A stretch of 64,000 bases of DNA from Obrimoposthia wandeli (Eukaryota), in contig CDROCS010003914.1 in the NCBI GenBank assembly GCA_977020255.1, forward strand, positions 248,001 through 312,000, read 5' to 3'. Shown piece after piece: positions 1 to 13,242 of this stretch (position 1 is the first letter of the stretch; every line of letters begins with the position of its first letter). Made by a program: the position numbers and the translations under genes. The notes beneath the pieces were generated by a model. The model had not been told where the DNA came from. It ran no database searches and saw only the letters and a list, made by a program, of their open reading frames with translations.

Positions 1-167
1 CATTCTGCTAGTGCAACGTTAGCTGGTATTAAATTGGCTCACATGATGAGAAAGAAAAAATTCAAGAACCCTGATCTTTCGGATTAACATCAATTTTTAG
101 AATTTGTTGCATAAATACGTCTAGAATTTAGTGCTTTTTGCTTAATTTAAAACTTTGCGACACAACC
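1..167 (+). mobile_element. IS6-family element, 3' remnant (transposase C-terminus pseudogene plus right inverted repeat)
   Basis: Frame 1 reads HSASATLAGIKLAHMMRKKKF, like the IS6 Tnp C-terminus, with an internal stop. Bases 151-167 (aactttgcgacacaacc) resemble the IS6-type terminal IR GGTTGTGTCGCAAAGTT. Confidence 0.7.
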
Positions 168-205
168 GGAGGGCTGTTAGTGCTTATAGGGTTCTGCAAA
201 TGACG

Positions 206-356
206 CAGACTGTGTGAAAACTCCCAAAAGTATCCAAAATACGCCTTTCTTATGTATGTTTTAAATTACCAGATTAACAAAATTAATAACTTAGATAGCA
301 CCTGTTTTCTTAGAAACGGGAAATTAACAGGTTGGTCTGAGTTCTCGCACAGCCTG
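206..356. mobile_element. 151-bp MITE with IS1182-type terminal inverted repeats (copy 1)
   Basis: Ends are cagactgtgtgaaaactc and gagttctcgcacagcctg, the same as the IS at 10419-12131. Near-TSD gacg/gaca. Same length as, and clearly similar to, the copy at 7700-7850. Confidence 0.85.
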
Positions 357-414
357 GACACAAAGCAGCCATTTTACTATGGAGGTTAACTACGAAAATA
401 ACAGCACTCTGTTT

Positions 415-960
415 TTAGCCCTTGCTAATTTTATTGTCAGGCATCAACTTGTTTATAACCTCATTGAAGTTATTACAAAATACTATTTTAGCATTATGTT
501 CCAAGGTAAAGTCTAGAACCCGAAGCATATTATCGTTATCAAATTTTTGATTCCACCAAAACATTTTCATAAATGAAGCAAAGGTTTCTTTACGGAATTG
601 ACCCTGAAAAAATTTACGTTTGAAGAAGCGTTTGAATATAAGCCATTGCCTAAGTAAAACGGATGGAGTTAGGATAACAATAATATCAGCATCACGAAAA
701 GAGTCGTCAAGCCATTTAAAATATACACCTTCAACTATCCAATTATCTTGAGACAATACTTGATTCAATTTTTCAGTCCTAGACTCTTCACTAGATCGAA
801 CATAAGTATTCTTGTCTTGATCCCAAAAAATTTTATCAAGATCGTAAGCATTTGTACTTGTTAATTCTTGAAGCTTAGTAGAGCTAAAAGTTTTACCACT
901 ACCAGGATCTCCAATGATGTGAATTTTACGATACTGCAAACGTGTACCCCATTGATTCAT
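415..960 (-). CDS. P-loop kinase, FlaR/topology-modulation protein (adenylate kinase-like) family
   Basis: KIHIIGDPGSGKT Walker A, DLDKIFW and WIVEGVY motifs typical of the family. Confidence 0.8.
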   Translation of the reverse strand: MNQWGTRLQYRKIHIIGDPGSGKTFSSTKLQELTSTNAYDLDKIFWDQDKNTYVRSSEESRTEKLNQVLSQDNWIVEGVYFKWLDDSFRDADIIVILTPSVLLRQWLIFKRFFKRKFFQGQFRKETFASFMKMFWWNQKFDNDNMLRVLDFTLEHNAKIVFCNNFNEVINKLMPDNKISKG

Positions 961-1351
961 AACTCTATAGTGTGGCAGTTTTACTAGAACCAGAGTGTGA
1001 AGCTACCTATATAGTCGGAGGAGGCTAAAATCATACTTTTGTAAGGAGTGGCTCTAGTTAAATAAGCTCATTTTAGACAGTATTGACACCAAGCAGACAT
1101 TTATTGGGGAGAATAACATCGCAGACTAATACCGCAAGGAGCAGAGGATATCATTACTAATTCGTAAGATAGTAACGTCTGGATCCCAATCTTGTTAGTA
1201 CTACCCCTGAGGTTGATTCGCAGTGCATTTAAAATACAGGCTAAAATATGATTTGAGCTCTTTTTTAGATGAATATTATTTACTATCAAAGCCACTAATA
1301 TCATAAAAGCAATTTTTACTTACTCCTTTAAATTTTTCTAGACACTCTTGA

Positions 1352-1797
1352 GTGCTGCCCCAGCCATTACTGCTATCACCACCATTAATTTCACATAAAT
1401 TGCTAACTGAATTTCTGAATGCGAATTTAGCTTCCACCGAAGATACAGAGGAAGAAGGTATAGATCATATTTACGCAACGGCTGTGGACATAGCGGCACA
1501 AGATCATGGTGATACCATTTCACTGGAGAATAAAGTAACCCTTTCTATTGCTATACGGCTCAAAGCTGAAGAGTTTATGTGGCGATACGTTGCTGATAGT
1601 AGTGAAATTGGAGGGAGCCAAACAGGTAGACTTTTGATCGTTTATGCAAGGAGAATTCAGACCTTAATAATGCCTTTGCTCCTATACGCAAAGTGCTAAG
1701 TCAGGTGTCTTTGATGACATTAGAAAATATTCATCTTAATTCGTTTATGTATGAGCCTTTAATGGATATGTCCATCTATCATTTAAGCGGCACATAG
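1352..1797 (+). pseudogene. C-terminal fragment of an AAA/ABC-type ATPase-like protein of the kind found near restriction-modification loci
   Basis: LENKVTLSIAIRLKAEEFM, then after a frameshift MTLENIHLNSFMYEPLMDMS ending at TAG 1795-1797. Recalled as a conserved C-terminal signature of that family. The N-terminus is missing. Confidence 0.45.
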
Positions 1798-1799
1798 CG

Positions 1800-1915
1800 C
1801 GTCGTAAAGACTGTATTATTTGGCGCACTCAAGGGGCTGGCAAAAGCTTAACTATGGTGTGACTGGCTAAATGGATTCGTGAGCATATTAAAAATGCGGG
1901 TGTAATTGTTGTTGA
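1800..1915 (+). pseudogene. hsdR: Type I restriction endonuclease subunit R (HsdR) fragment around helicase motif I
   Basis: Translates as RRKDCIIWRTQGAGKSLTMV*LAKWIREHIKNAGVIVV, matching the HsdR IWHTQGSGKSLTMVWLAKWIRE signature with an in-frame stop. Confidence 0.75.
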
Positions 1916-1999
1916 TTTTATCATAGATGATAATTTTATTGTGACCGTTAATTCAAAGTCATCGCTTATTGGAGACTATGCCATTTGTAGCGCCAGGAA

Positions 2000-2290
2000 T
2001 TAATCACTAGTGGATATGAATCTCCCTACTTAGCTTCAAGTTCATCAAGCGCTAACTCGGCTGCTTCCTTTGTGGCTGCGCGGTAAACAGTTTTTAAATC
2101 GGCCATAAATTCTTTTTGATTCTTTGAAGCCACATACTTCATTGAATTACGTATTTGATGAACAATGCACAGTTGCGCTTCCGTTTCAGGAAAAATGGCA
2201 GCGATTGCTTCAGGAAAGCCTGTCAGATCATCAATACAGGCAATGAGGATATCTTTAGCCCCACGGTTTTTATAAGTCAGTAAGCACGGT
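2000..2290 (-). pseudogene. IS256-family (Mutator) transposase internal fragment
   Basis: NRGAKDILIACIDDLTGFPEAIAAIFPETEAQLCIVHQIRNSMKYVASKNQKEFMADLKTVYRAATKEAAELALDELEAK*GDSYPLVI, a classic IS256 segment with a stop. Confidence 0.85.
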
Positions 2291-2560
2291 TAATTGCGTT
2301 TTTCAATCCTGGATCAATTCCCGAAATATTTTCCATAATATATAACTCTCCAGATATTATATATTATTATACAGTAAAATATAAATTAAATACATAAACA
2401 TAATTTTTTAGTTGTTACTCATAGGCTGAATTGTTAACTGCATTCTTCTTTAAAATTAAAAATATCTTGAAAATTATATAATATTTATATGATTAAATAC
2501 TTCGTTGTTTTTTACATTTACAAGCTAAGTTCTAAAGCAAGTTGAAATGACTCGATAAAC

Positions 2561-2589
2561 TTGACAATATTTACTTTTTTAAATATATT
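2561..2589 (+). promoter_or_regulatory. Near-consensus sigma70 promoter upstream of the rep-like gene
   Basis: TTGACA (2561-2566), 17-bp spacer, TATATT (2584-2589). Confidence 0.6.
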
Positions 2590-2657
2590 CTAATAAAAAC
2601 AGTGGTTTAATTGTGATTTATAATTGGCTAATTAATTCCCAAAATAGAGAGTTTTTA

Positions 2658-2714
2658 AGGGTCAGCTTTTCGAAACCTCCTTATATATATATTATTTATT
2701 TAAAAGCTGTCCCT
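2658..2714. repeat. 13-bp inverted repeat enclosing an AT-rich spacer (candidate origin or leader hairpin)
   Basis: agggtcagctttt (2658-2670) and aaaagctgtccct (2702-2714), one mismatch, around cgaaacctccttatatatatattatttattt. Confidence 0.7.
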
Positions 2715-2961
2715 AAATTTATTTTTATTTACCGCTTCGCGAAAAAAACAAACCCATTCCTCATTGCACTGCTAAATATAATGGATAAATTTAATTAACT
2801 TTTACATAAAAAAGATAAGTAATAAAAGTTAATTGAAACTAAAAATAATTTATTTACTTAAAAGTATGGAGCATAAGTTAAAAATGTATTACTATTAATG
2901 TACGTTAAAATAATGACCACTTTTAATGCTTAATCTACTACTTAAAAACAAAGAGAATATT

Positions 2962-5574
2962 ATGAAAACTACTAATAAGAGTGCTGCTAGAGCACCAAGA
3001 ATCTACATTACTAAAAGCGAAGAATTTAAAGAAAATGTTGAAGATTTAGTTATTGTTACTAAGTTCACAGAATTTGAAATTGAAAAACAGATTAATAGCA
3101 ATATTAAGAAATCTACTATAATTTTAGTTACTAGTAAAAACGATGCGTACAGAGATTCTTTTATTGCACGAAATTTTAAAATTAAAATGCAACTAGAAGA
3201 TGTTGTACATAACTACGCTAGCTTAAGTAAATTAGCAGTAAGCATAGCGCAAGCATCATTTATACAAGGCGAAATAAGTTTAGATAAGTCTTTTAACTTC
3301 ATTGTTAACACTCTTATAGATCAAATTCCTTCAAAAATTATTCTTGCAAATGCGGTTGAAATATTTAAAACATTTAGCACTGATACTAGTAAATATGAAA
3401 ACGAATTAAAGATAAAAATTGAAGAACGAAATATAAAGATCATAAATTCAGTGTCAGTTGATCCAAATAATCCAAACGCCGAATTTTTGGAGATGGATCA
3501 TGGACCAGAATTAGTAAATCACATGCTTAAAAGACCAGGTAATTACGCATTAACTGGAGGTTTGGGTACATTTAAAACAACTAATGCAATACTTCCTCTT
3601 TTTGAAAAGTTGTGTGGAAAAAGCAAGTTTCCGATTTTATGTACTGCTAAAAAAATATTGGTATCATCTCTTATTTCCGACAAAGACAGTCGACATTACC
3701 AGAATGCAAAGTATATTTTAGGTGAAAATAACTCAGTAAATATGCCAATCTCTGGCACGGTTGGTGTAGTAAACTCCATTTTTGGTGGTGATAAATACAA
3801 TTTTGGCGACTTCAACAAGGCAAGTAGTGCATTACTAGTAGAAGAAATTGAGGATGTGTTGGCGCAGATGTCAAGTAAGGCGGTTGGAAATGGCACACTT
3901 GATGAGCGTGCAGAGCTAATCGAAAATTTTTATAAACAAATGCAAAAATCAGAATTAAACGTAATTGCAGATAGCATGCTTAGTAATGCTACAGTTAATA
4001 AAATCGCAGAAATTACGGGCAAAAAAGTAATTATATGCAAACCAAAAAATGCAAAGAAAAATGACTTAACTGTTAATTATTTTCAATCCGAAAGTCAATC
4101 TGTCGATTCTACAATCCAAGCTTTAGAAGCAGATAAAAAAGTAGCCAGCTTTTGCGATGCTAGCCATAACGAAAACAGATCAAGATTTAATGAGTTGCAC
4201 GAAGCAGTATCAATGAATCTAGAAAATAGCTTAAAAATAGATGGAGAACTAACAGGAAAGGGTGGTTCAGGCGGATTTATTGATAATATAGATGCAGAAC
4301 TTAATAAATATCAACACGTAATGATCAGTCCTGTAATCAGTTCAGGCGTAAGTATTATGACTGATGAATACAGTAAAGTGTCACTTTTGGGTTACCAAAC
4401 TTTTGATCCAAAACAGCTTATACAAAGCATTAGAAGATTCAGAAAAGTCATAGACATCGATTTATGTATCACTAACACAAACCGAAAATTCCCTACATCT
4501 ACATCAGCGATTTTAGTTAACGAGCTAATGACAGAGCTAACAGATACTGAATTTACTGATGAAACATTCAATGAATTTTTTGGCAACAAAGCTATAAAAA
4601 CAGTAACAACCCAAATTGCACAACAAAACGAACTTAGACAAAACTACATAAACACTGTTTTAGTCATTCTTGAATTTTTAGGCTTTAAGATTAATTTAGT
4701 AAAAGAAGATATGAAAGCAAAGAAAAGAGGTGCTAAAGCAATTAAAGATGGTATGTGTGCAGCACGTGGCGAGCGTGCCAATAAAATTATATCATTGAAA
4801 AAAATAGCAAATGATGAAGCTAACAGAATAAGTAGCAATAAAGATTTTTCAACGCAACACGAAAAAAACAGCTTAGCTGCTTATAAAATGTACGATTTTT
4901 ATAAAGTAGATAAAATCGATCAGGAATTAATTGAATTTGATAGTGCAGGAAACGGCAAGATAATCATAGATAATATTCGTTATGCAAAAACCGATATCCC
5001 AAATTCTATAAAAAACGATGAGCTAATTAAGCGACATACAATAAAAAAAGTGTGTGAAATGTTAAACATTAACACTGATAAAATGAATGGAGAATTTTTT
5101 GAAAGTGATAGTAAAGAATTTTTCAATTGGGTAACGACAGGAAATTTAGAAATTGAAGGTTTAAAAAACATTACTGCAAAAACAGCAATAGAAATCACTT
5201 TTCCATTTGCAAGTATTAGCACACAGCCTGCACGTGTTGTTAAATCAATCTTAAGGAGTGGTTTTTATCTCGACACAAAACAAGAATGCAAAGAAAAAAA
5301 AGACATTGTATCGGCATGCGAGAAAAAATATTTTGTAGTGAAAAGCGAGAAGTTTGATATTGCTATAAGCTACTACAATGCAATAATTGAAAAAACTGCT
5401 AAAGCTACTACTATTATTACTAAGTGCAGCAACAAAAAAACCAAGGCTGAATTCCTGAACACAATAAATAACAAAAACAAGATAAGACTTGGTAAACCAG
5501 TTAAGCCAAAGAGCAAGAAGAAAAAGAAAGAATTGAAATTAAAAAACGGAGTGCCGCTTTTAGTAATTACTTAA
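2962..5574 (+). CDS. Putative replication protein, UL9-like/CyRepA1-family SF2 helicase domain (ORF open from 2926)
   Basis: Ordered SF2-like motifs: GGLGTFKTT (I), LLVEEIEDVL (II), VIADSML (III), SPVISSGVSI (V), QSIRRFR (VI). Basic C-terminal tail. Followed by a terminator. Confidence 0.6.
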   Translation: MKTTNKSAARAPRIYITKSEEFKENVEDLVIVTKFTEFEIEKQINSNIKKSTIILVTSKNDAYRDSFIARNFKIKMQLEDVVHNYASLSKLAVSIAQASFIQGEISLDKSFNFIVNTLIDQIPSKIILANAVEIFKTFSTDTSKYENELKIKIEERNIKIINSVSVDPNNPNAEFLEMDHGPELVNHMLKRPGNYALTGGLGTFKTTNAILPLFEKLCGKSKFPILCTAKKILVSSLISDKDSRHYQNAKYILGENNSVNMPISGTVGVVNSIFGGDKYNFGDFNKASSALLVEEIEDVLAQMSSKAVGNGTLDERAELIENFYKQMQKSELNVIADSMLSNATVNKIAEITGKKVIICKPKNAKKNDLTVNYFQSESQSVDSTIQALEADKKVASFCDASHNENRSRFNELHEAVSMNLENSLKIDGELTGKGGSGGFIDNIDAELNKYQHVMISPVISSGVSIMTDEYSKVSLLGYQTFDPKQLIQSIRRFRKVIDIDLCITNTNRKFPTSTSAILVNELMTELTDTEFTDETFNEFFGNKAIKTVTTQIAQQNELRQNYINTVLVILEFLGFKINLVKEDMKAKKRGAKAIKDGMCAARGERANKIISLKKIANDEANRISSNKDFSTQHEKNSLAAYKMYDFYKVDKIDQELIEFDSAGNGKIIIDNIRYAKTDIPNSIKNDELIKRHTIKKVCEMLNINTDKMNGEFFESDSKEFFNWVTTGNLEIEGLKNITAKTAIEITFPFASISTQPARVVKSILRSGFYLDTKQECKEKKDIVSACEKKYFVVKSEKFDIAISYYNAIIEKTAKATTIITKCSNKKTKAEFLNTINNKNKIRLGKPVKPKSKKKKKELKLKNGVPLLVIT

Positions 5575-5675
5575 TAGTAGCAGACAAAAATTCAGAAGAT
5601 CGCTTATACAACAGCTTAATCAATTTATCAAAGAACCAAATTAGCAATGAATGTAGAGTGTAAACTATAGACGAT

Positions 5676-5706
5676 AAAAAGCCCGCTTGTATAAAGCAGG
5701 CTTTTT
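5676..5706 (+). terminator. Intrinsic terminator after the rep-like gene
   Basis: aaaaagcccgctt-gtata-aagcaggcttttt hairpin with A and T tracts. Confidence 0.75.
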
Positions 5707-5827
5707 GTGTGGCTACCAAACCACTAACAAAGATTATGTAGGTGACCAAACCTACTTATAAAATTATAGTATATAACTGCTTAATTTGCAACCAAAAAAC
5801 CAAATTTCACACCAGATTCCACACTTA

Positions 5828-5874
5828 ATTACCTATCTAATAATATAAAAATTCAATATTTGTTGGTTGCAATA
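5828..5874 (+). repeat. 47-bp direct repeat, copy 1
   Basis: attacctatctaataatataaaaattcaatatttgttggttgcaata. Differs from 12311-12358 by two substitutions and one indel. Confidence 0.9.
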
Positions 5875-6186
5875 TCTGATGACATAAGTGAACAGAAAGA
5901 AAGGGAGCGGAGAATTGGCTGGCTTGGAGTGTTGATATTGGCTGGAGGTTTCTTTTTTCAGTTAATTCAAACTATCTTCTCCTTATAGATTGATCATCAC
6001 CATTACAAATGACCCAGTTTTATTTTTTAATTTTGTCCGTATAAAAATGTAACTAGGTGTCAGTGTCCGCTTTTACTATAAGCTACAGGGATCTAATACC
6101 CCATACCCTCACGCATATCAATTTGGTGTGGGTACATGATTATAGCTTAGTTTGTAAACCAAATTTGAAACTTGCGACACAGTCTC

Positions 6187-6513
6187 TTATCTTGTTTGAG
6201 CCTGCTGAAGAGGGCTAAGCACTTCTATCTCAATACTATCTGCTTGTATCAGCGATACTAGTTTATTAAAACTGTCTTTCTCTGCCACTAAGTGATTGGA
6301 ATCATGTGCTTGTTGTTCGGTTTTCCAATAATAAATGGCAAGCCATTCATTATTTCCTCGTTGGTATAGTGTTTGCTCAATAAAGCCAGGGAGGTTTTTT
6401 ACGTCATTACTTAGTGTCGTCATCGCTTGTATCATTTGCTGTTTATCCACCCCTTTATTGGCTGTCCAGCGAACGGTTTCATATACGGGTTGATTGATGG
6501 TTGAGTCTGACAT
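6187..6513 (-). CDS. Antibiotic-biosynthesis-monooxygenase-like (dimeric alpha-beta barrel) protein
   Basis: 108 aa with the LPGFIEQTLYQ..WLAIYYWKTEQQA pattern. Divergent from the LysR gene. Confidence 0.6.
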   Translation of the reverse strand: MSDSTINQPVYETVRWTANKGVDKQQMIQAMTTLSNDVKNLPGFIEQTLYQRGNNEWLAIYYWKTEQQAHDSNHLVAEKDSFNKLVSLIQADSIEIEVLSPLQQAQTR

Positions 6514-6618
6514 TATTTCTTCCTATTGTTTGTAGAGGATGTTTTAGATAATAACGGATTCATAAACGTTGATAATGCTATAAAATGTAAGATCACTCTT
6601 TCTCTGTGGGAATGAATC

Positions 6619-7506
6619 ATGGTTGTTTTTGATGATGCAACATTGTTTAAGCGTATTGTTGATTTAGGCTCATTGGCTAAGGCCGCTGAGAGTTTAGATA
6701 TAAGTGCATCGGCGGTAAGTAAGCATTTGGTTAGGCTAGAAAAAGCATTGAATGTGCAGTTGTTGAAGCGCACTACTCGGCGTCAACACCTTACTGAGGC
6801 TGGCCTGATCTTTTATCAGCGCCTCCACACGATAGAAGGTGATTGGTTAAGCAGTCTTGATGAAGTAAGAAATGTGCATGCGCAGCCAAAAGGACAATTA
6901 ACAATAGCCACACCGCAACCCATTGCGAGCCGTTTTTTAATGCCCTTGCTAGCAGCATTTCAGCATCGTTACCCTAAGATACAATTAACTATATTAAATC
7001 GAGCACTCGAATCTTTGCCATGTTCCGAAGCTGATATTTCCATTAGCCGCGAGCTAGAAAATTACCACTCGGCCATAATGGTGGCAGTACCATTTTACGA
7101 CTATCACAATAGTTTATTTGCCTCTCCCGAATTTATTCAAATCCACGGTCAGTTACAAAATATAGAAGACTTATCACGTATGCCCTGTGTAACCTATGGT
7201 GCTTTGGGTCATAATCCGATATGGCATTTTTATAAAGATATGGAGCAGGTGGCCTCTGTTACTCCTCAAATAATGTGTAAAGCGGATAATACAGAAGTGC
7301 TAATCAATGCCGCCGTTAATCATATCGGTATTACCTATCTGCCAGCAGCAATCGTAGAGCAAGAAGTAATCAGCAAGAGATTGGTTGCTGTGTTGCCTGA
7401 GTTCCACAGCCAAACCTATAAAACAGTGGCTTATTATCCTAAAATGGAATTTATGCCACGTAAAATACGATTATTTTTGGATATGCTAAAAACCTTTTAT
7501 CGATAA
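6619..7506 (+). CDS. LysR-family transcriptional regulator
   Basis: N-terminal HTH (GSLAKAAESLDISASAVSKHLVRLEKALNVQLLKRTTR) and a substrate-binding domain; 295 aa. Confidence 0.92.
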   Translation: MVVFDDATLFKRIVDLGSLAKAAESLDISASAVSKHLVRLEKALNVQLLKRTTRRQHLTEAGLIFYQRLHTIEGDWLSSLDEVRNVHAQPKGQLTIATPQPIASRFLMPLLAAFQHRYPKIQLTILNRALESLPCSEADISISRELENYHSAIMVAVPFYDYHNSLFASPEFIQIHGQLQNIEDLSRMPCVTYGALGHNPIWHFYKDMEQVASVTPQIMCKADNTEVLINAAVNHIGITYLPAAIVEQEVISKRLVAVLPEFHSQTYKTVAYYPKMEFMPRKIRLFLDMLKTFYR

Positions 7507-7699
7507 GGAGTTTCTTACGGGAAATCTAAAATTGATGATAGTAAAAAACGTTAGTATTGTTCAGTTTGTATTTTCTAGTCAATCTGAATAAAGCATACGC
7601 TTCTAAATTAAAACGTGTGCTTTTTAAAACACGTAAACTATGAGCCATATCGTTAAAATTTGTTCAAAACAAGCTCTAACGAAACGTCTGCTTTGTGTC

Positions 7700-7850
7700 C
7701 AGACTGTGTGAAAACTCACTAAAGTATGTAAATTACACTTTTTTCGCATATCTTTTAAATTATCAGGTTAATAAAATCAGTAACTTACATCGCACTTGTT
7801 TTCTTAGAAGCGGGAAATCAAAGATTTGATCTGAGTTTTAACACAGCCTG
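7700..7850. mobile_element. 151-bp MITE with IS1182-type TIRs (copy 2), 4-bp TSD TGTC
   Basis: cagactgtgtgaaaactc ... gagttttaacacagcctg, flanked by tgtc on both sides. Confidence 0.88.
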
Positions 7851-8023
7851 TGTCAATTCCTGCCTTTATCTCTATGAAGTAATAGAGGCGGGAAACGGGC
7901 AAAGGACTAAACCGCTAGCGCGGTAATGGTGCCAGCTTCAACTCTTTTATATTACCCAAGCTTATTAATAATCTCTTATCCTAGAACAGGGCAACATGAC
8001 CCTCTAAGATAGGAGTACCTAGC

Positions 8024-8900
8024 ATGAGTATCTCAACTGAACTCATTAGTCCACTGCGCCAGCGCATGATCGATGACATGATGATGCGTAAACTCGCAGC
8101 AAAAACACAACGCGCTTATATCTGCGCCGTCCTTAAACTCACCCATTTCTTAAAGCATTCTCCCGCGACAGCAACAGCAGAAGAACTACGGCTATTTCAG
8201 TTACAGCTTGTCGGCCAAGGTGCCTCAGCAATCACCATTAATGCCACTATCACAGGCTTGAAATTCCTGTTTGAAGTGACCTTACGAAGATAATATGCTG
8301 GCAAAGATGAGCACGATCACTGTCCCTAGGCATCTGCCTGAAGTACTAAAGTATCGATGGTAGCACGTTTCTGAAAGCGTAATAAAGAGCCTAAATACCG
8401 TGCTGCGCTGGCATCGCCTATGGTTCTGGGCTGCGTGTAAGTGAGATTGTAGTCCTTAAAATCAGTGATATTGACAGCCAGCGGATGGTCATCCGCGTCA
8501 ATCAGGGCAAAGGACACAAAGACAGGTACGCATTACTCTCTCCATTGTTGCTGCATCAGCTACGAGATTGGTGGAGCTTTGCTCATTCAAAGGGAAGAAT
8601 CTTGCATAATGGTTGGTTATTTCCAAGGGCTAATTTTACTGATCACTTATCCACTCGACAGTTAAGCCGAGTGTGCAGAACGACTGCCGATGCTGCTGGT
8701 ATCAGTAAACGTGTTTCGATGCATACTTTAAGGCATAGCTTTGCGACGCATTTACTCGAAGCTAAAGTCGGTATTCGGGTGATTCAAGTATTACTAGGGC
8801 ATAAAAAACTGGAGACGACAGCGTTGGCACAGAAGTAGCAACACCACAACTGCTTAGTGAAATGCCGTAGCCGCAGAATGCTCTAGAATTGTCAACGTGA
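8024..8900 (+). pseudogene. Tyrosine recombinase (phage integrase SAM4 N-domain plus catalytic domain), broken by stop and frameshifts
   Basis: SPLRQRMIDDMMMRKLAAKTQRAYI (8024-8293). GLRVSE-like segment near 8430. VNQGKGHKDRY and HTLRHSFATHLLE..IQVLLGHKKLETT (8485-8838). Confidence 0.85.
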
Positions 8901-8910
8901 TACTGATGTT

Positions 8911-10079
8911 ATGTCTAACACTCACTTAGAAATGGCAGATATTTTTCGCCTCTACGGTAAAACTTGGCGTACAGCACATGCAAGGCATATTTCATTGGCT
9001 CAACTAAAAGTGATGTCAGCGATAGAGAACTGCCGCACTCAAGCTTTGGGTGGCCATCTGTTGTGTTGTGAATCCTGTCACCGCAAGCATATCTCTTACA
9101 ATTCTTGTCGCAACCGCCACTGTCCTAAATGTCAGGCAAGCTCTGCCAAACGTTGGTTGGAGGCTCGACAAGTTGAGTTATTGCCCGTTGATTATTATCA
9201 CTTGGTGTTCACGCTTCCCCAGCCCCTGAGTAATCTTGCCTATTACAATAAAACGTTGATGTACGGTTTGTTATTGCAGGCCGCTGCTGAAACATTACTG
9301 ACGATTGGCGCGGACCCAAAGCGCTTAGGCGCTCGCCTTGCGGTTACCTTTGTATTGCATACTTGGGGATCAGCTTTGACTCATCACCCACATGTGCACG
9401 GCATTGTTCCTGGTGGAGGTCTTTCTTTGGATGGTGAGCGTTGGATTCAGTGCCGCTCGGGGTATTTCTTACCTGTGCGGGTGCTATCGCGATTATTCAG
9501 GCGCCTATATTTACAGAAGCTTAGCCAATCACATGCACGATTGCAGTTTTTCGGGGAGTACTCAGCCCTGTGTGAAGAAGAAGCTTTTCACAAATGGCTG
9601 AATCCCTTAAAGCGTATTGAATGGGTAGTCTACGCCAAGAAACCTTTTGCGGGTCCCAAGGCAGTACTGGCTTATTTAGCACGCTATACTCATCGCGTTG
9701 CCATTGCTAATAGTCGCTTGGTGTCTGCTGATGCAGAAACGGTTAGCTTTCGCTGGAAAGATTACCGACTGAAAGGGATACAACGCTATCAGGTTATGAG
9801 CCTCGCGACAGGTCAGTTTATTCAGCGCTTCTTATTGCATGTATTACCCCGAGGCTTTCATCGCATTCGCCACTACGGTTTTATTGCCAATGTCGGGCAG
9901 CGAAAATTTAACCCGTGCGTGAGTTGTGCTGTCAAAGAAGAAATATTAAGATCAATATTGCCGTTATCTAAGGAAATAATGGAACATATGGCAGTTTTTA
10001 CTGCCCAGATTGTGGTAATCCAATGATTGTCCTTGAAGTATTAATGCGTAAGCAGCAACCGCGGGCTTCGCCTGTTTAG
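8911..10079 (+). pseudogene. IS91-family (HUH/Y2 rolling-circle) transposase with a frameshifted C-terminus
   Basis: Zn-binding CRTQALGGH..CESC..YNSCRNRHCPKCQ, HUH motif LHTWGSALTHHPHVH, and YLARYTHRVAI. The C-terminal CPDCGNPM..QPRASP lies in another frame ending at 10079. Confidence 0.88.
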
Positions 10080-10418
10080 TCTTGGGATTAGATAAAATAG
10101 TATTCGATTTCATCGGTTCGTTGCGATGAGAGGAGGCTGCGTGCTGAATCTCGTAAACACCAAAATTGGCTCGGTAATTAACTGACTAGAGTAAATAAGG
10201 TATGAAAATAGGCTTAGAAAATGGCATGATTATATGGAATAAGAAGGTGTATGGTAATCTGAGCATGACGGAGTTATTTCAAATCCCCATAGTTCGAAAC
10301 ATAGAACAAGCTTCAAAGTAACGTCCCGCGGTTTCCTCCCTTGAGGCCTATAAGACATCTGCTTCTAGCAATGCAGATATAGCTGATTCTGTGGTGGCAA
10401 ATATCTTATAACCCTAAA

Positions 10419-12131
10419 CAGACTGTGTGAAAACTCAGAATAAGACCATTAAACATCGTTAAGTATGCTATTTAACCTGTCAAATGACTTAACCACCGAA
10501 TATTAACATTTGAACGGAATATTAGTTTTATAAGGCTTAGGTGAGCTAATAATGATAAATATGCTGTTTTGAGGTGTTTTATGGCGTAATTTGAAGCTAA
10601 ATGTACCTTTATTGTCTGATCGCTTCCATTAACCCAGTTGTTCCCAGTATCGCCATCATGCGTTTTAGGTTGTAAGCCAGCACATGCAAATTCATTTCTA
10701 TACTCACATTCTTTTTGCGCTTCATTAAGAAGTGTGTCGCACCCATCCACATTTTAATCGTGCCAAACGGATGCTCTGAATCATCATCGAGTCGCTGTTG
10801 CATAGCGTCAATTTCTGCTTCATAAATCCAGCGCCTCATTTCCTAGAGCTCCTTTAATGTGCCGTGCATTTATCCCCTAATCGTTCGTCACGGCAAGCAG
10901 CTGGGTTAACGTAAACTTTCTGTTCGAGGCCTTTCTCCTGTCGCACTCGACGATAGGGTAATGCCTGCCCGCAAAACATATAGATATCTTGGCCCTTGTC
11001 GTATTTGAATAACGATTTGTTGAATATGCCTTTCTTTGCCGCACCTGATGTATCGATTTGCGGAACATTTACCGTCATGCCTAAGTCTTGTGTCGCCTTG
11101 ATATCAATTCGGCTGAAATAGCCTTTATCAGCAATAATGGTGATATCTTTTTTACATAATGTTTCTTGAACCTGCTCTGCTACTAAAGTCAGTTGGCCTC
11201 TGTCAGTTGTCATCACGATATCGTGTGCAACAATCAAGTGATGCTTTGTATCTACAGCACTTTGCACATTATAACAAACCTGCCTTTGCATGTGATGTGT
11301 CTTCATCAAACGGGCATCAGGGTCAGTTCGTGATATCTGCTTGTCTGGATGTGCATTCACTTCTACTTCAAGCGCTTTAAGCTCCACTAATCGCTGTTCA
11401 AGCCATGCTAACTTTGAGGTTGAGACAGTGTTTGACGTCTCCTTTTCATCTTTGTCTTTGCTATCCATTTGACTTAAGTATTTTTGGATATTCTTCTCAA
11501 CGCGGTCAATATGGAACTGCACTTTGCTGGGTGTGTAATTCTTTGATTTGTTGTTGACGGCCTTGAATTTACTGCCGTCAATAGCGAAGAGTGATTCGCT
11601 GAACATATTCATCTGGCGACACATCTCTACAAACTGACGGCACACGCTTCTTATACCTTTGCCATTATCCTTTCTGAAGTCTGCAATTGTTTTAAAGTCT
11701 GGCATTAATCGACCCAGCAGGCACATCAATTCAACGTTGCGATGACTTTCTTTTTCTAAGCGCCGAGAAGATTGAATACGGTTGAGATAACCATAGATAT
11801 AGAGTTTTAGGAGGATGGCTGGGTGGGCCAGTATCCTTAGCTATAACGCGCTTAAACCCAAGTGTTTCAAGGTTTAAACTTTCTACAAATACATCCACGA
11901 CTCGAACGGAATTATCTTCAGTAACAAAGTCATCAAGTACTTCGGGGAACAAGGTGGTTTACGTTCCTGACTGGCCTAAAATATGATGTGCCATCACGTT
12001 TACCCTATGGTTTGGCTGACCATATCATTATACTAAAAGTGATGGTTTAATAGGCGATAACATTAAGATTGATCGATCATAAGTAGCTAGAGCTTAGATC
12101 AAAAGGTAATCAATAGTTTTCACACAGCCTG
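10419..12131 (-). mobile_element. IS1182-family insertion sequence (1713 bp), transposase inactivated
   Basis: TIRs cagactgtgtgaaaactc and tagttttcacacagcctg. The transposase is split over several ORFs. Confidence 0.9.
10609..11994 (-). pseudogene. IS1182-family transposase (fragmented)
   Basis: FPEVLDDFVTEDNSVRVVDVFV; LLGRLMPDFKTIADFRKDN; FAIDGSKFKAVN; TDPDARLM; ADKGYF; EHPFGTIKMWMGATHFL. Confidence 0.9.
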
Positions 12132-12204
12132 TATCACGTCCTTCCAAGGGCAGCTAGAATTCCTCGCGGAATTAAATGAACACAACATTAAAATGAGTGC
12201 AAAC

Positions 12205-12302
12205 CATTTCATTATTTATGAGATTTCTCGGAGTGCTGGAATCTCATATAAGATGAAACGGCCCCGTGTTTCCAAACCTCATCGTTTCACTACTTATGAG
12301 AT
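12205..12302. repeat. Three 20-bp CRTTTCA-N6-ATGAGAT motifs (forward, reverse, forward); res-site-like
   Basis: 12205-12224 catttcattatttatgagat; 12241-12260 reverse complement cgtttcatcttatatgagat; 12283-12302 cgtttcactacttatgagat. Confidence 0.75.
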
Positions 12303-12310
12303 CTGACACG

Positions 12311-12358
12311 ATTACCTATCAAATAATATAAAAAATTCAATATTTATTGGTTGCAATA
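12311..12358 (+). repeat. 47-bp direct repeat, copy 2
   Basis: attacctatcaaataatataaaaaattcaatatttattggttgcaata. Confidence 0.9.
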
Positions 12359-12406
12359 AACGAGCACTATATAACCAGCTTGATATACTTATAGTTAGCA
12401 ATACAA

Positions 12407-12643
12407 TTGTTTGTAAGCAAAAAAATTTTGTGGCAAAAAATGAATGATGTAAATGTGGATCCTAAAGAATTATTTGAGGAGGTTGAGAAGCAAAGAGAGG
12501 CGGGTACGGTAAGCGATGGTATAACTAGTAGTCCTTTTAAGTTTCAAGGGTCGGAAGGTTTTCCAGGATTTATAGAGCGAATTGATGAAAATGGGAATGT
12601 AGAGGTGGGTAGATTTAGGGATGAGGTTTTCGAAAAGAGGTAA
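12407..12643 (+). CDS. Small acidic hypothetical protein; resembles the C-terminal half of long ParD-like antitoxins
   Basis: VDPKELFEEVEKQREAG...FQGSEGFPGFIERIDENGNVEVGRF, recalled similarity only. Followed by a terminator. Confidence 0.4.
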   Translation: MFVSKKILWQKMNDVNVDPKELFEEVEKQREAGTVSDGITSSPFKFQGSEGFPGFIERIDENGNVEVGRFRDEVFEKR

Positions 12644-12662
12644 CTAAATGCAAAAGTTAAAC

Positions 12663-12695
12663 AAAAAAAAGCCGGTCAAGTTGACCGGCTTTTTT
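12663..12695. terminator. Bidirectional intrinsic terminator
   Basis: aaaaaaaagccggtcaa-g-ttgaccggctttttt, a perfect palindrome. Confidence 0.85.
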
Positions 12696-12885
12696 AATGG
12701 AAATTCGGTAAAAAATCTCGGGGTACAGAATCTAGGGTACAAAAAGGGGATATTTAGTGCAGTAAATATTATTTAATAGAGTAAATATTACTCATTAAAA
12801 ATATATATTACTGTAAATAAAATTTTTCCTTTTTGTCTAAATCCTTGTTTTATTGTACCTTTTAAATATTTTACCGTTAACAAAG

Positions 12886-13242
12886 TGGTGGAGGTGGCGG
12901 GTTTCGAACCCGCGTCCGCCAATCCGCTGCCTCAAGATCTACATGCTTAGACACTTCTACTAAGTTAACCCAGCACGGCCCGAAGGTCAGGGCGTTTAGG
13001 GCGAGCCTCTTTAGTTTTAACCGTTCAGCTTGAGACAAAGCTTCCGGGCGATCCCATCTCATATGACACAACAAATCCTCTAGTTATAGGCACCTGAAGG
13101 TGTTGCGTAGCAGGCTTAAGCTGCTAGTGCGTAGTTATCGTCGTTTGCAACTATAACTTTGTAGTAAGGGATTAACGTGATTCACTACACTCACGACATG
13201 CACTTAAGGTTTTGTAATCGGCGTCGAATCCAAGTCACCCCC
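12886..13242 (-). ncRNA. ssrA: tmRNA, tag peptide ANDDNYALAA
   Basis: 5' GGGGGTGACTTGGATTCGAC; 3' GGGTTCGAAACCCGCCACCTCCACCA; resume frame gca aac gac gat aac tac gca cta gca gct taa. Confidence 0.97.

Follow-up and report, generated by a model that had tools for sequence, protein, structure and literature searches.

We analyzed a 64,000-nucleotide stretch of DNA (the window), bases 248001 to 312000 of the 329-kb bacterial contig C3914 within the 1.35-Gb assembly of Obrimoposthia wandeli (GCA_977020255.1; labeled G000). A preliminary description of the window had picked out five short motifs, at positions 357, 1085, 6063, 7684, and 10355, and had proposed that they delimit gene modules mobilized by a tyrosine recombinase (Int) and an IS91-type HUH transposase encoded beside them. 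Most likely, three of these motifs are real and do bound modules, and the Int+IS91 pair is the wrong engine. On the sequence data, the motifs at 357, 1085, and 7684, together with a split site at 7883, are probably module-bounding lox/dif-like sites used by a small recombinase of 207 amino acids (aa), with the Int+IS91 element and insertion sequences (IS) of the IS1182 family as their parasites.

Coordinates are window positions, negative values being contig bases to the left of the window. G001, G002, G053, G078, G113, and G129 are comparison genomes; L numbers denote individual loci and C numbers denote contigs. RecN was 73% identical to that of G002 and 71% identical to that of G001, genomes reached via loci titled Oceanospirillaceae and Nitrincola.

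A family of arm-spacer-arm sites in the tmRNA island

All five motif strings were present at, or one to two bases from, their described positions, but they fell into three classes and not one family. The octamer GTCYGCTT, put forward as their common motif, occurred only at 1091(-), 6065(+), 7686(+), and 23954(-); the motifs at 357 and 10355 therefore lack it. A looser octamer, GKCHGCTT, was not enriched in the window (15 found versus 12.8 expected). The motifs at 357, 1085, and 7684 share the arm AAYGKCHGCWW and a TGTGTC-type spacer. They belong to a family of ~30-bp sites in which two arms surround a conserved spacer. The shared direct orientation claimed for the motifs holds for 357 and 1085, both on the minus strand around a FlaR-like gene, but not for 7684, which is on the plus strand.

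A profile was trained on 25 sites of G002 and scored on arm plus spacer. The three motifs scored between 20.8 and 26.5 bits (Table 1), as opposed to -7.9 bits for 6063 and -2.7 bits for 10355. The training sites had been gathered with a pattern derived from the window motif (26 matches versus 2 for the reversed pattern in G002, and 2 versus 2 in G001), so the profile test is only partly independent; full independence does hold for the insertion data given below. With a threshold of at least 14 bits, 8 matches were found in 201,568 contig bases, and 20 Markov controls gave 0 to 3. All 8 lay within a 71-kb tmRNA island that spans -57990 to 12886 and is bordered by the 3' end of the tmRNA gene and its direct repeat at -57990; none was found in the ~131 kb outside. 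Equal motif frequency in island and core DNA, which had been named beforehand as grounds for refutation, was thus not seen. The earlier account of the three motifs as sites of the recombination type is supported, and they are confined to accessory DNA, the profile matches being found in the island only.

Window bases 1 to 12885 are the right end of the island. Three of the four clear window sites are interrupted by other elements, and the window is a decayed piece of a site array. When three sites were rebuilt, their single-strand folding energies were 0.0, -0.2, and -2.2 kcal/mol. Two of the three hardly fold, which argues against the suggestion that the motifs act as short hairpins or single-strand processing signals. 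Such poor folding would fit double-stranded arm-spacer-arm sites.

Two unrelated transposons enter the same spacer

The IS1182 set comprised every exact end match present in the assembly (22); nine loose inverted-repeat matches were dropped as noise. Thirteen of 14 two-ended insertions abutted an arm plus spacer and had a 4-bp duplication of the spacer. Beyond the 14th, at 10419 to 12131, nothing but a right half was present. Two single ends came after GGCC. The elements have terminal inverted repeats, and the transposase matched the IS1182 family (NF033551 above its cut-off, copy on C1004). They are likely parasites that insert into the sites.

The Int+IS91 element of the window is broken as assembled: its integron-like tyrosine recombinase is disrupted, with three indel-rich patches, and the C terminus of its transposase is frameshifted. 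In a contig of a sequencing run, 131 letters replace the first 127-letter patch with exact flanks, so some of the breaks in Int may be assembly errors. The transposase is a Y2 HUH enzyme with a zinc-binding domain (PF04986 and PF14319; NF033538 at 414 bits against a cut-off of 125, C1143 copy). Among solved structures, Int was closest to IntI4, although without the IntI insertion (19 residues between the matched stretches versus 55 in IntI4), and it scored 175 bits on TIGR02249, whose cut-off is 265. Element ends were mapped on 80 loci; in 58 of them a left anchor preceded the transposase by ~1.0 kb, and the misses were mostly on short contigs. Int lies within a mobile element having its own ends.

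The flanks of 38 such elements rebuild a site composed of an arm, a spacer ending in GGCC or TGTC, and a right arm. The arm was in register at 27 of 38 relatives, as opposed to 1, 9, 8, and 2 for shifted controls, and at 9 of 11 further close relatives (shifted controls, 0, 1, 0, and 1). The right arm was found at 34 of the 38 elements (control, 12). Four junctions were left out of the junction and arm tests: the window itself, two mis-called ends, and one tandem. The insertion point is after the last C of the spacer. In the window, the left half of site 4 directly precedes the element, and the same joint is empty on contig C3321; remnants located 5.9 kb left of the window and in G002 come directly after TGTGTC. 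Four copies or remnants in this assembly lie beside such sites, and remnants also lie within the G002 array.

No target duplication of fixed length was found for the Int+IS91 element. At 26 of 33 junctions the first base after the spacer C was identical on the two sides, and the next two bases were so at 10 and 15, a count that left out five Rhodobacteraceae copies. We infer that the junction bases are a shared dinucleotide plus two carried bases rather than a duplication. In one Rhodobacteraceae genome, seven copies of a single element (L109 to L115) differ in two junction bases and include one head-to-tail tandem. Distant relatives (41 to 50% identity; L229, L231, L232, and L235) lacked the arm at 5 of 5 junctions and ended at GTT or ATT; the lox-like target thus appears to be a trait of one clade of the element.

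The fixed register inside the sites and the cut through the spacer make both Int+IS91 and IS1182 look like site-hunting parasites, and for the Int+IS91 element this role, not that of an engine, is the likely one. The convergence of two unrelated transposons on a single spacer provides independent evidence that proteins really bind these sites as targets. Contigs of one sequencing run that contains the stretch, and that may come from the source sample, showed no circle joint of the element and no joint at any site; such contigs drop rare forms.

Arrays, carriers, and cargo

The site pattern occurred in 40 of 190 genomes of the bacterial family, with 136 matches in total, at most 48 per genome, and one or none in most genomes; the reversed control gave 0 to 2. 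G002, G129, and G053 had 48, 18, and 10 same-facing sites, respectively (reversed-pattern controls, 0, 0, and 1). There are two main spacer types, TGTGTC and T/CGGCC, and a third type was also found. Within arrays the sites face the same direction and are often paired as ~90-bp joints. In a ~48-kb stretch of G002 (contig C1), same-facing sites of two spacer types, often in the form of such joints, lie between genes, and the joints recur as a repeat in that genome. On other contigs of the assembly (C5945, C3321, and C2866), single open reading frames (ORFs) alternate with same-facing sites, with one ORF per interval on C5945.

DNA segments shared between sequences ended at the sites more often than expected by chance. 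After IS masking, 9 of 24 shared segments had an end lying no more than 25 nt from a site in each of the two sequences, and none of 2,000 shifted controls exceeded 2. Pairs that were IS masked, tandem, shorter than 250 nt, or below 75% identity were omitted. For the FlaR module of the window itself, G129 carries the final 148 nt (91% identity). The match runs as far as the site 1 arm, beyond which there were a variant spacer and unrelated DNA.

Several arrays on other contigs lie between, or end in, Tn7-like termini, recognized by TGT...ACA ends, repeated ~20-bp sites, and a 5-bp duplication, features that mark Tn7-like ends. One 5.9-kb unit (L039, 5668 to 11569) is flanked by a perfect 5-bp duplication and carries three small ORFs, a RAYT-like gene, and, in its last site, a copy of the element. 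Two others (C1143, 300574 to 305395; C5945, 15354 to 25250) have duplications matching at 4 of 5 positions. All three are non-autonomous Tn7-like units with an interior that consists entirely of sites in an array. No ORF recognizable by eye as tnsABC was present within 1.5 kb of 11 ends (no family search was made).

Of the modules described earlier, the FlaR-like gene does lie between sites 2 and 1, but the "ABM"+LysR pair and the Int+IS91 unit lack two family sites and are not bracketed, because 6063 and 10355 are outside the family. The label "ABM" for 6187 to 6513 was not upheld, this 108-aa ORF having no Pfam or NCBIfam match; it had two relatives at 42 to 45% identity among 190 genomes. 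The only intact close relative of the FlaR-like protein among 151 genomes (57% identity) is an integron cassette without family sites; one distant metagenome locus and 17 distant plasmid records had further relatives. That cassette (L160, G078:C22) has an upstream attC and DNA similarity to window 411 to 963, and the window gene (415 to 963) begins directly after GTT. For both reasons, the FlaR-like gene may be a former integron cassette now placed between lox-like sites.

A 207-aa recombinase as the candidate engine

Next to one site lies a short tyrosine recombinase gene, of which the assembly holds three copies. On C4649 the gene sits inside a joint, with an intact TGTGTC site on one side and a CGGC-type site on the other. 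Across 32 recombinase loci, an inward arm was found upstream in 19 (background, 85 of 502; P = 3e-7) and downstream in 20 (background, 84 of 816; P = 7e-12), and the spacers around these loci vary widely. The family keeps the R-K-HxxR-H-Y catalytic residues. It was found in 27 of 190 family genomes, in 7 of 301 in a class-wide search, and in 73 plasmid records when at least 60% identity was required. Since the sites around the recombinase gene are intact and those around the Int+IS91 element are split, the 207-aa recombinase is the likelier candidate engine, as judged from local anatomy. The Int+IS91 pair, cast earlier as the mobilizer, splits the site at a fixed base. Among the 10 family genomes with three or more sites, many of them incomplete, 8 gave no match to the element (E ≤ 1e-60), including G129 and G053.

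The two enzymes co-occurred with each other (7 of 18 versus 20 of 172; P = 0.006), which may reflect only mobile-element load. Co-occurrence with TGTGTC sites at the genome level was not significant for either the recombinase gene or the element. A second short tyrosine recombinase family is found at G000:C2422:312957-313460 (L027), ~600 bp from a site and the lead-in of a Tn7-like end.

Several observations weigh against the assignment of the sites to this recombinase and to module exchange. The recombinase and TGTGTC sites co-occurred at the chance level (6 of 40 versus 21 of 150; P = 0.80). It was present in 3 of the 10 genomes with three or more sites (P = 0.16), and it was not found in the other 7, which include G129 and G053. 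Among the local copies, one has Tyr for His of the LGH motif, one has a stop, and one is cut by a contig end; all three are on contigs that may or may not belong to the bacterium of the window. Five of the 32 loci (L238, L263, L264, L258, and L214) had no upstream arm even with a loose pattern. The inner arms of the sites are degenerate, so the palindrome is imperfect. All nine breakpoints were single ended, and none of the 24 pairs ended at sites on both sides; the expected coincidence of module boundaries with motifs thus exceeds chance at one end but is never seen at both. Six of the nine came from one assembly, three were between genomes, and a single LysR module is common to two of them. 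In the G129 copy of FlaR, the break at the 5' part falls within the gene, not at a site. Finally, a fixed list of spacers scored only 5 of 19 left junctions in a second set of elements, and the arm test was made afterwards.

Proposed mechanism and alternatives

In the mechanism we favor, the small recombinase, encoded elsewhere, would recombine double-stranded sites. Like spacers would recombine with like spacers, so that a module could be excised, inserted, or exchanged between arrays, and unlike spacers would keep a joint stable. For the parasite, the HUH enzyme would make a single-stranded circle of the element whose end hairpin folds, and the integron-like Int would then join the folded end to a double-stranded site across the shared C-N dinucleotide. 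If this is correct, a very common, unstudied 207-aa recombinase shuffles accessory genes in the fashion of pdif and goes unnoticed by annotation pipelines. IS91-type elements carry a recombinase that has long lacked an explanation, and the sites, now defined in empty and filled form, allow it to be tested directly. Natural spacer variants could supply orthogonal recombination sites for engineering.

Some of the same facts could be read differently. Inward arms flank even the recombinase gene, joints are repeated in G002, and none of the cargo pairs is bounded by sites on both sides, as would be expected if the sites were the ends of small selfish units (a recombinase-carrying joint and a ~90-bp miniature) that pile up in islands, the cargo being passive and exchanged occasionally. 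We consider this unlikely in view of the joint-free single sites that border individual ORFs and face one way (window 357/1085 and C5945) and of cargo that stays tied to a site while the far side changes. Still less probable is the original proposal, in which the Int of the element, either alone or together with the HUH enzyme, also recombines one site with another and mobilizes the modules. Int must recognize the sites to insert into them, it falls in an integron-like subgroup (10.1101/542381), and four copies or remnants of the element occur beside such sites in the assembly, with remnants also within the G002 array. Yet the element destroys the site it enters and was not found in most site-rich genomes, the arm-free GTT/ATT junctions of distant relatives mark the target as a clade trait, and the sites lack the conserved hairpin of the element.

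The motifs might also be nothing but preferred IS1182 targets (terminator-like palindromes) or chance matches. Two of the three real motifs abut IS1182-type miniature inverted-repeat transposable elements (MITEs), two of the five motifs are unrelated, and IS1272, a member of the family, targets hairpins (PMC4923244). Many sites, however, carry no IS, and the sites fold poorly; their sequence and spacer are conserved, unlike the targets of IS1272, for which the same source gives no consensus; and an unrelated element uses the same register. The profile, breakpoint, and arm-register tests largely refute this explanation, and we regard it as very improbable.

Comparison with known systems

The favored arrangement, module-bounding sites served by a 207-aa recombinase, resembles the pdif (dif) modules of Acinetobacter, which lie between ~30-bp sites of the tyrosine-recombinase type. 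As described in PMC13141974 and PMC10132070, spacer identity decides the partners of pdif recombination, and elements of the IS1202 family home to the sites, members inserting 5 bp from the XerC box. Both traits have counterparts here, in the spacer-governed partner choice that we predict and in an IS family that homes to sites. Unlike pdif, the present sites face one way and are linked to a dedicated recombinase, and their arms have no XerC/XerD box visible by eye on comparison with dif, whose boxes surround a 6-bp spacer (no dif profile was run). The two unrelated parasites insert inside the spacer, unlike IS1202.

With integrons (IntI, attI, and attC), the system shares same-facing arrays of small accessory modules, and the Int of the element is IntI4-like. 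The absence of canonical attC, noted earlier, was confirmed (0 RYYYAAC...GTTRRRY pairs in 1 to 12900). In contrast to integrons, the sites barely fold, Int has no IntI insertion, and modules may hold divergent or several genes. On the features examined, the site system is not an integron. Some of the arrays lie within transposon ends, much as class 1 integrons do in Tn402.

Int followed by a Y2 HUH transposase within the same ends is the arrangement of IS91-family elements with an upstream tyrosine recombinase. ISSod25, ISWz1, and ISAzo26 are elements of this kind. The present clade differs from that subgroup in its insertion at a fixed register in lox-like sites. IS91 and IS1294 are not known to have a covarying hairpin at the right end or a pair of variable bases at the junction. 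According to 10.1101/542381, the IS91 recombinases lack the IntI insertion, and Int is placed in an integron-like subgroup. Palindromic targets are shared with the IS1182 family. IS1272 of this family deletes part of its hairpin target (PMC4923244), but the target here has a sequence consensus and a 4-bp duplication. Tn6022 has an XerC-like/dif-like system in a Tn7-like element, proposed to serve cargo diversification, and one hybrid dif site needing host XerD (PMC11014353). It resembles the present units in having a tyrosine recombinase site inside a Tn7-like element and differs from them in that the latter have arrays of non-dif sites.

More broadly, and more tentatively, Proteobacteria may run a second, non-integron cassette platform in which a minimal recombinase acts on lox-like sites with several spacer types. 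Tn7-like mini-transposons would carry this platform, and it would be old enough for site-hunting parasites of its own to have arisen. The Int+IS91 elements might then be split into clades that target integron GTT cores and lox-like sites, one IntI-like family bridging both. Searches of the open-access literature found no description of these sites; subscription papers, supplements, and ISfinder/TnCentral were outside the search.

Other features of the window

Table 1. Features at the right end of the tmRNA island
Feature	Coordinates	Strand	Remarks
IS6-type element end	150..167	-	Copy from about -623 to 167
Site 1, right half	186..205	-	Target duplication with one change, then right arm; same right half after four other IS1182-cut sites
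IS1182-type MITE (151 bp)	206..356		In spacer of site 1
Site 1, left arm and spacer	357..375	-	TGTGTC type; 26.5 bits
FlaR-like/AAA_18 kinase-fold gene	415..960	-	Cargo between sites 2 and 1; below curated cut-offs
Site 2, uninterrupted	1073..1103	-	Spacer variant GGTGTCA; 20.8 bits (1085-1103)
CyRepA1-like replication protein, 882 aa	2926..5574	+	E 1.9e-41, below cut-off; no family sites at borders
Noncoding ~95-bp repeat	6013..6108	+	Contains 6063 motif; outside site family by tests run
108-aa ORF (-) divergent from LysR regulator (+)	6187..7506		Cargo upstream of site 3; left border is IS6-type end 6164-6184
Site 3, left arm and spacer	7681..7699	+	TGTGTC type; 24.7 bits
Second IS1182-type MITE	7700..7850		4-bp duplication TGTC
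Duplication, site 3 right half, short linker of two-site joint	7851..7882	+	Matches empty joint at G000:C3321
Site 4, left half	7883..7900	+	CGGCC-type spacer with one change; split by Int+IS91 element; missed in earlier description
Int+IS91 element	7901..10419	+	Tyrosine recombinase 8024 to ~8870; Y2 HUH transposase 8911-10026
Right-end hairpin of Int+IS91 element	10349..10412	+	Contains 10355 motif; covariation in relatives
IS1182-family element	10419..12131	-	Frameshifted as assembled
Likely right half of further TGTGTC-type site	12132..12145	+	Left half gone; probable from resemblance to right halves at C5945:16486 and G001:1862157
tmRNA gene	12886..13242	-	Right border of 71-kb island

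The two motifs outside the family have origins of their own. We considered 6063 as a family site with another spacer, its 11-mer being one change from the arm, but the score was below zero and the five aligned copies of the surrounding repeat differ exactly at the would-be spacer position, and membership is therefore unlikely. Copies of the repeat in G002 (C3, C14, C23, and C34), G113 (C3), and G129 (C20) are often arranged as inverted pairs around short DNA or genes, and it is possibly the end of another element.

The motif at 10355 to 10378 lies inside the right end of the Int+IS91 element, which is common to the C1143 copy through 10419. The CTGC-N10-GCAG string reported there exists, but it is part of the element's own end, and the pairing conserved across 30 relatives is with a distal arm near 10398 to 10412 (compensatory change in 8 of 11 pairs). 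We rejected the hairpin as originally drawn: its energy advantage is confined to the window copy, which has a mismatch in the distal arm, and it is not the covarying pairing.

The sequence left of site 1 matches the lead-in that elsewhere runs from sites of this kind to a Tn7-like right end, but the end at 167 cuts it off; that end is presumably of the IS6 type, given its end motif and 193-aa ORFs. The tmRNA gene was the sole Rfam match. The CyRepA1-like gene is low in GC and lies within the island. A 47-bp direct repeat follows it (5828 to 5874) and recurs near the tmRNA gene (12311 to 12358); these copies may mark stacked satellite-like units. Window 1191 to 1458 has a 78% DNA match to G001:C1:24688 and is a fragment of a larger gene, with more gene debris following to ~2340. 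At the contig end (G000:C3914:324600-329568) are tandem ~395-bp repeats, similar to an array in G001, which likely encode a large repetitive surface protein.

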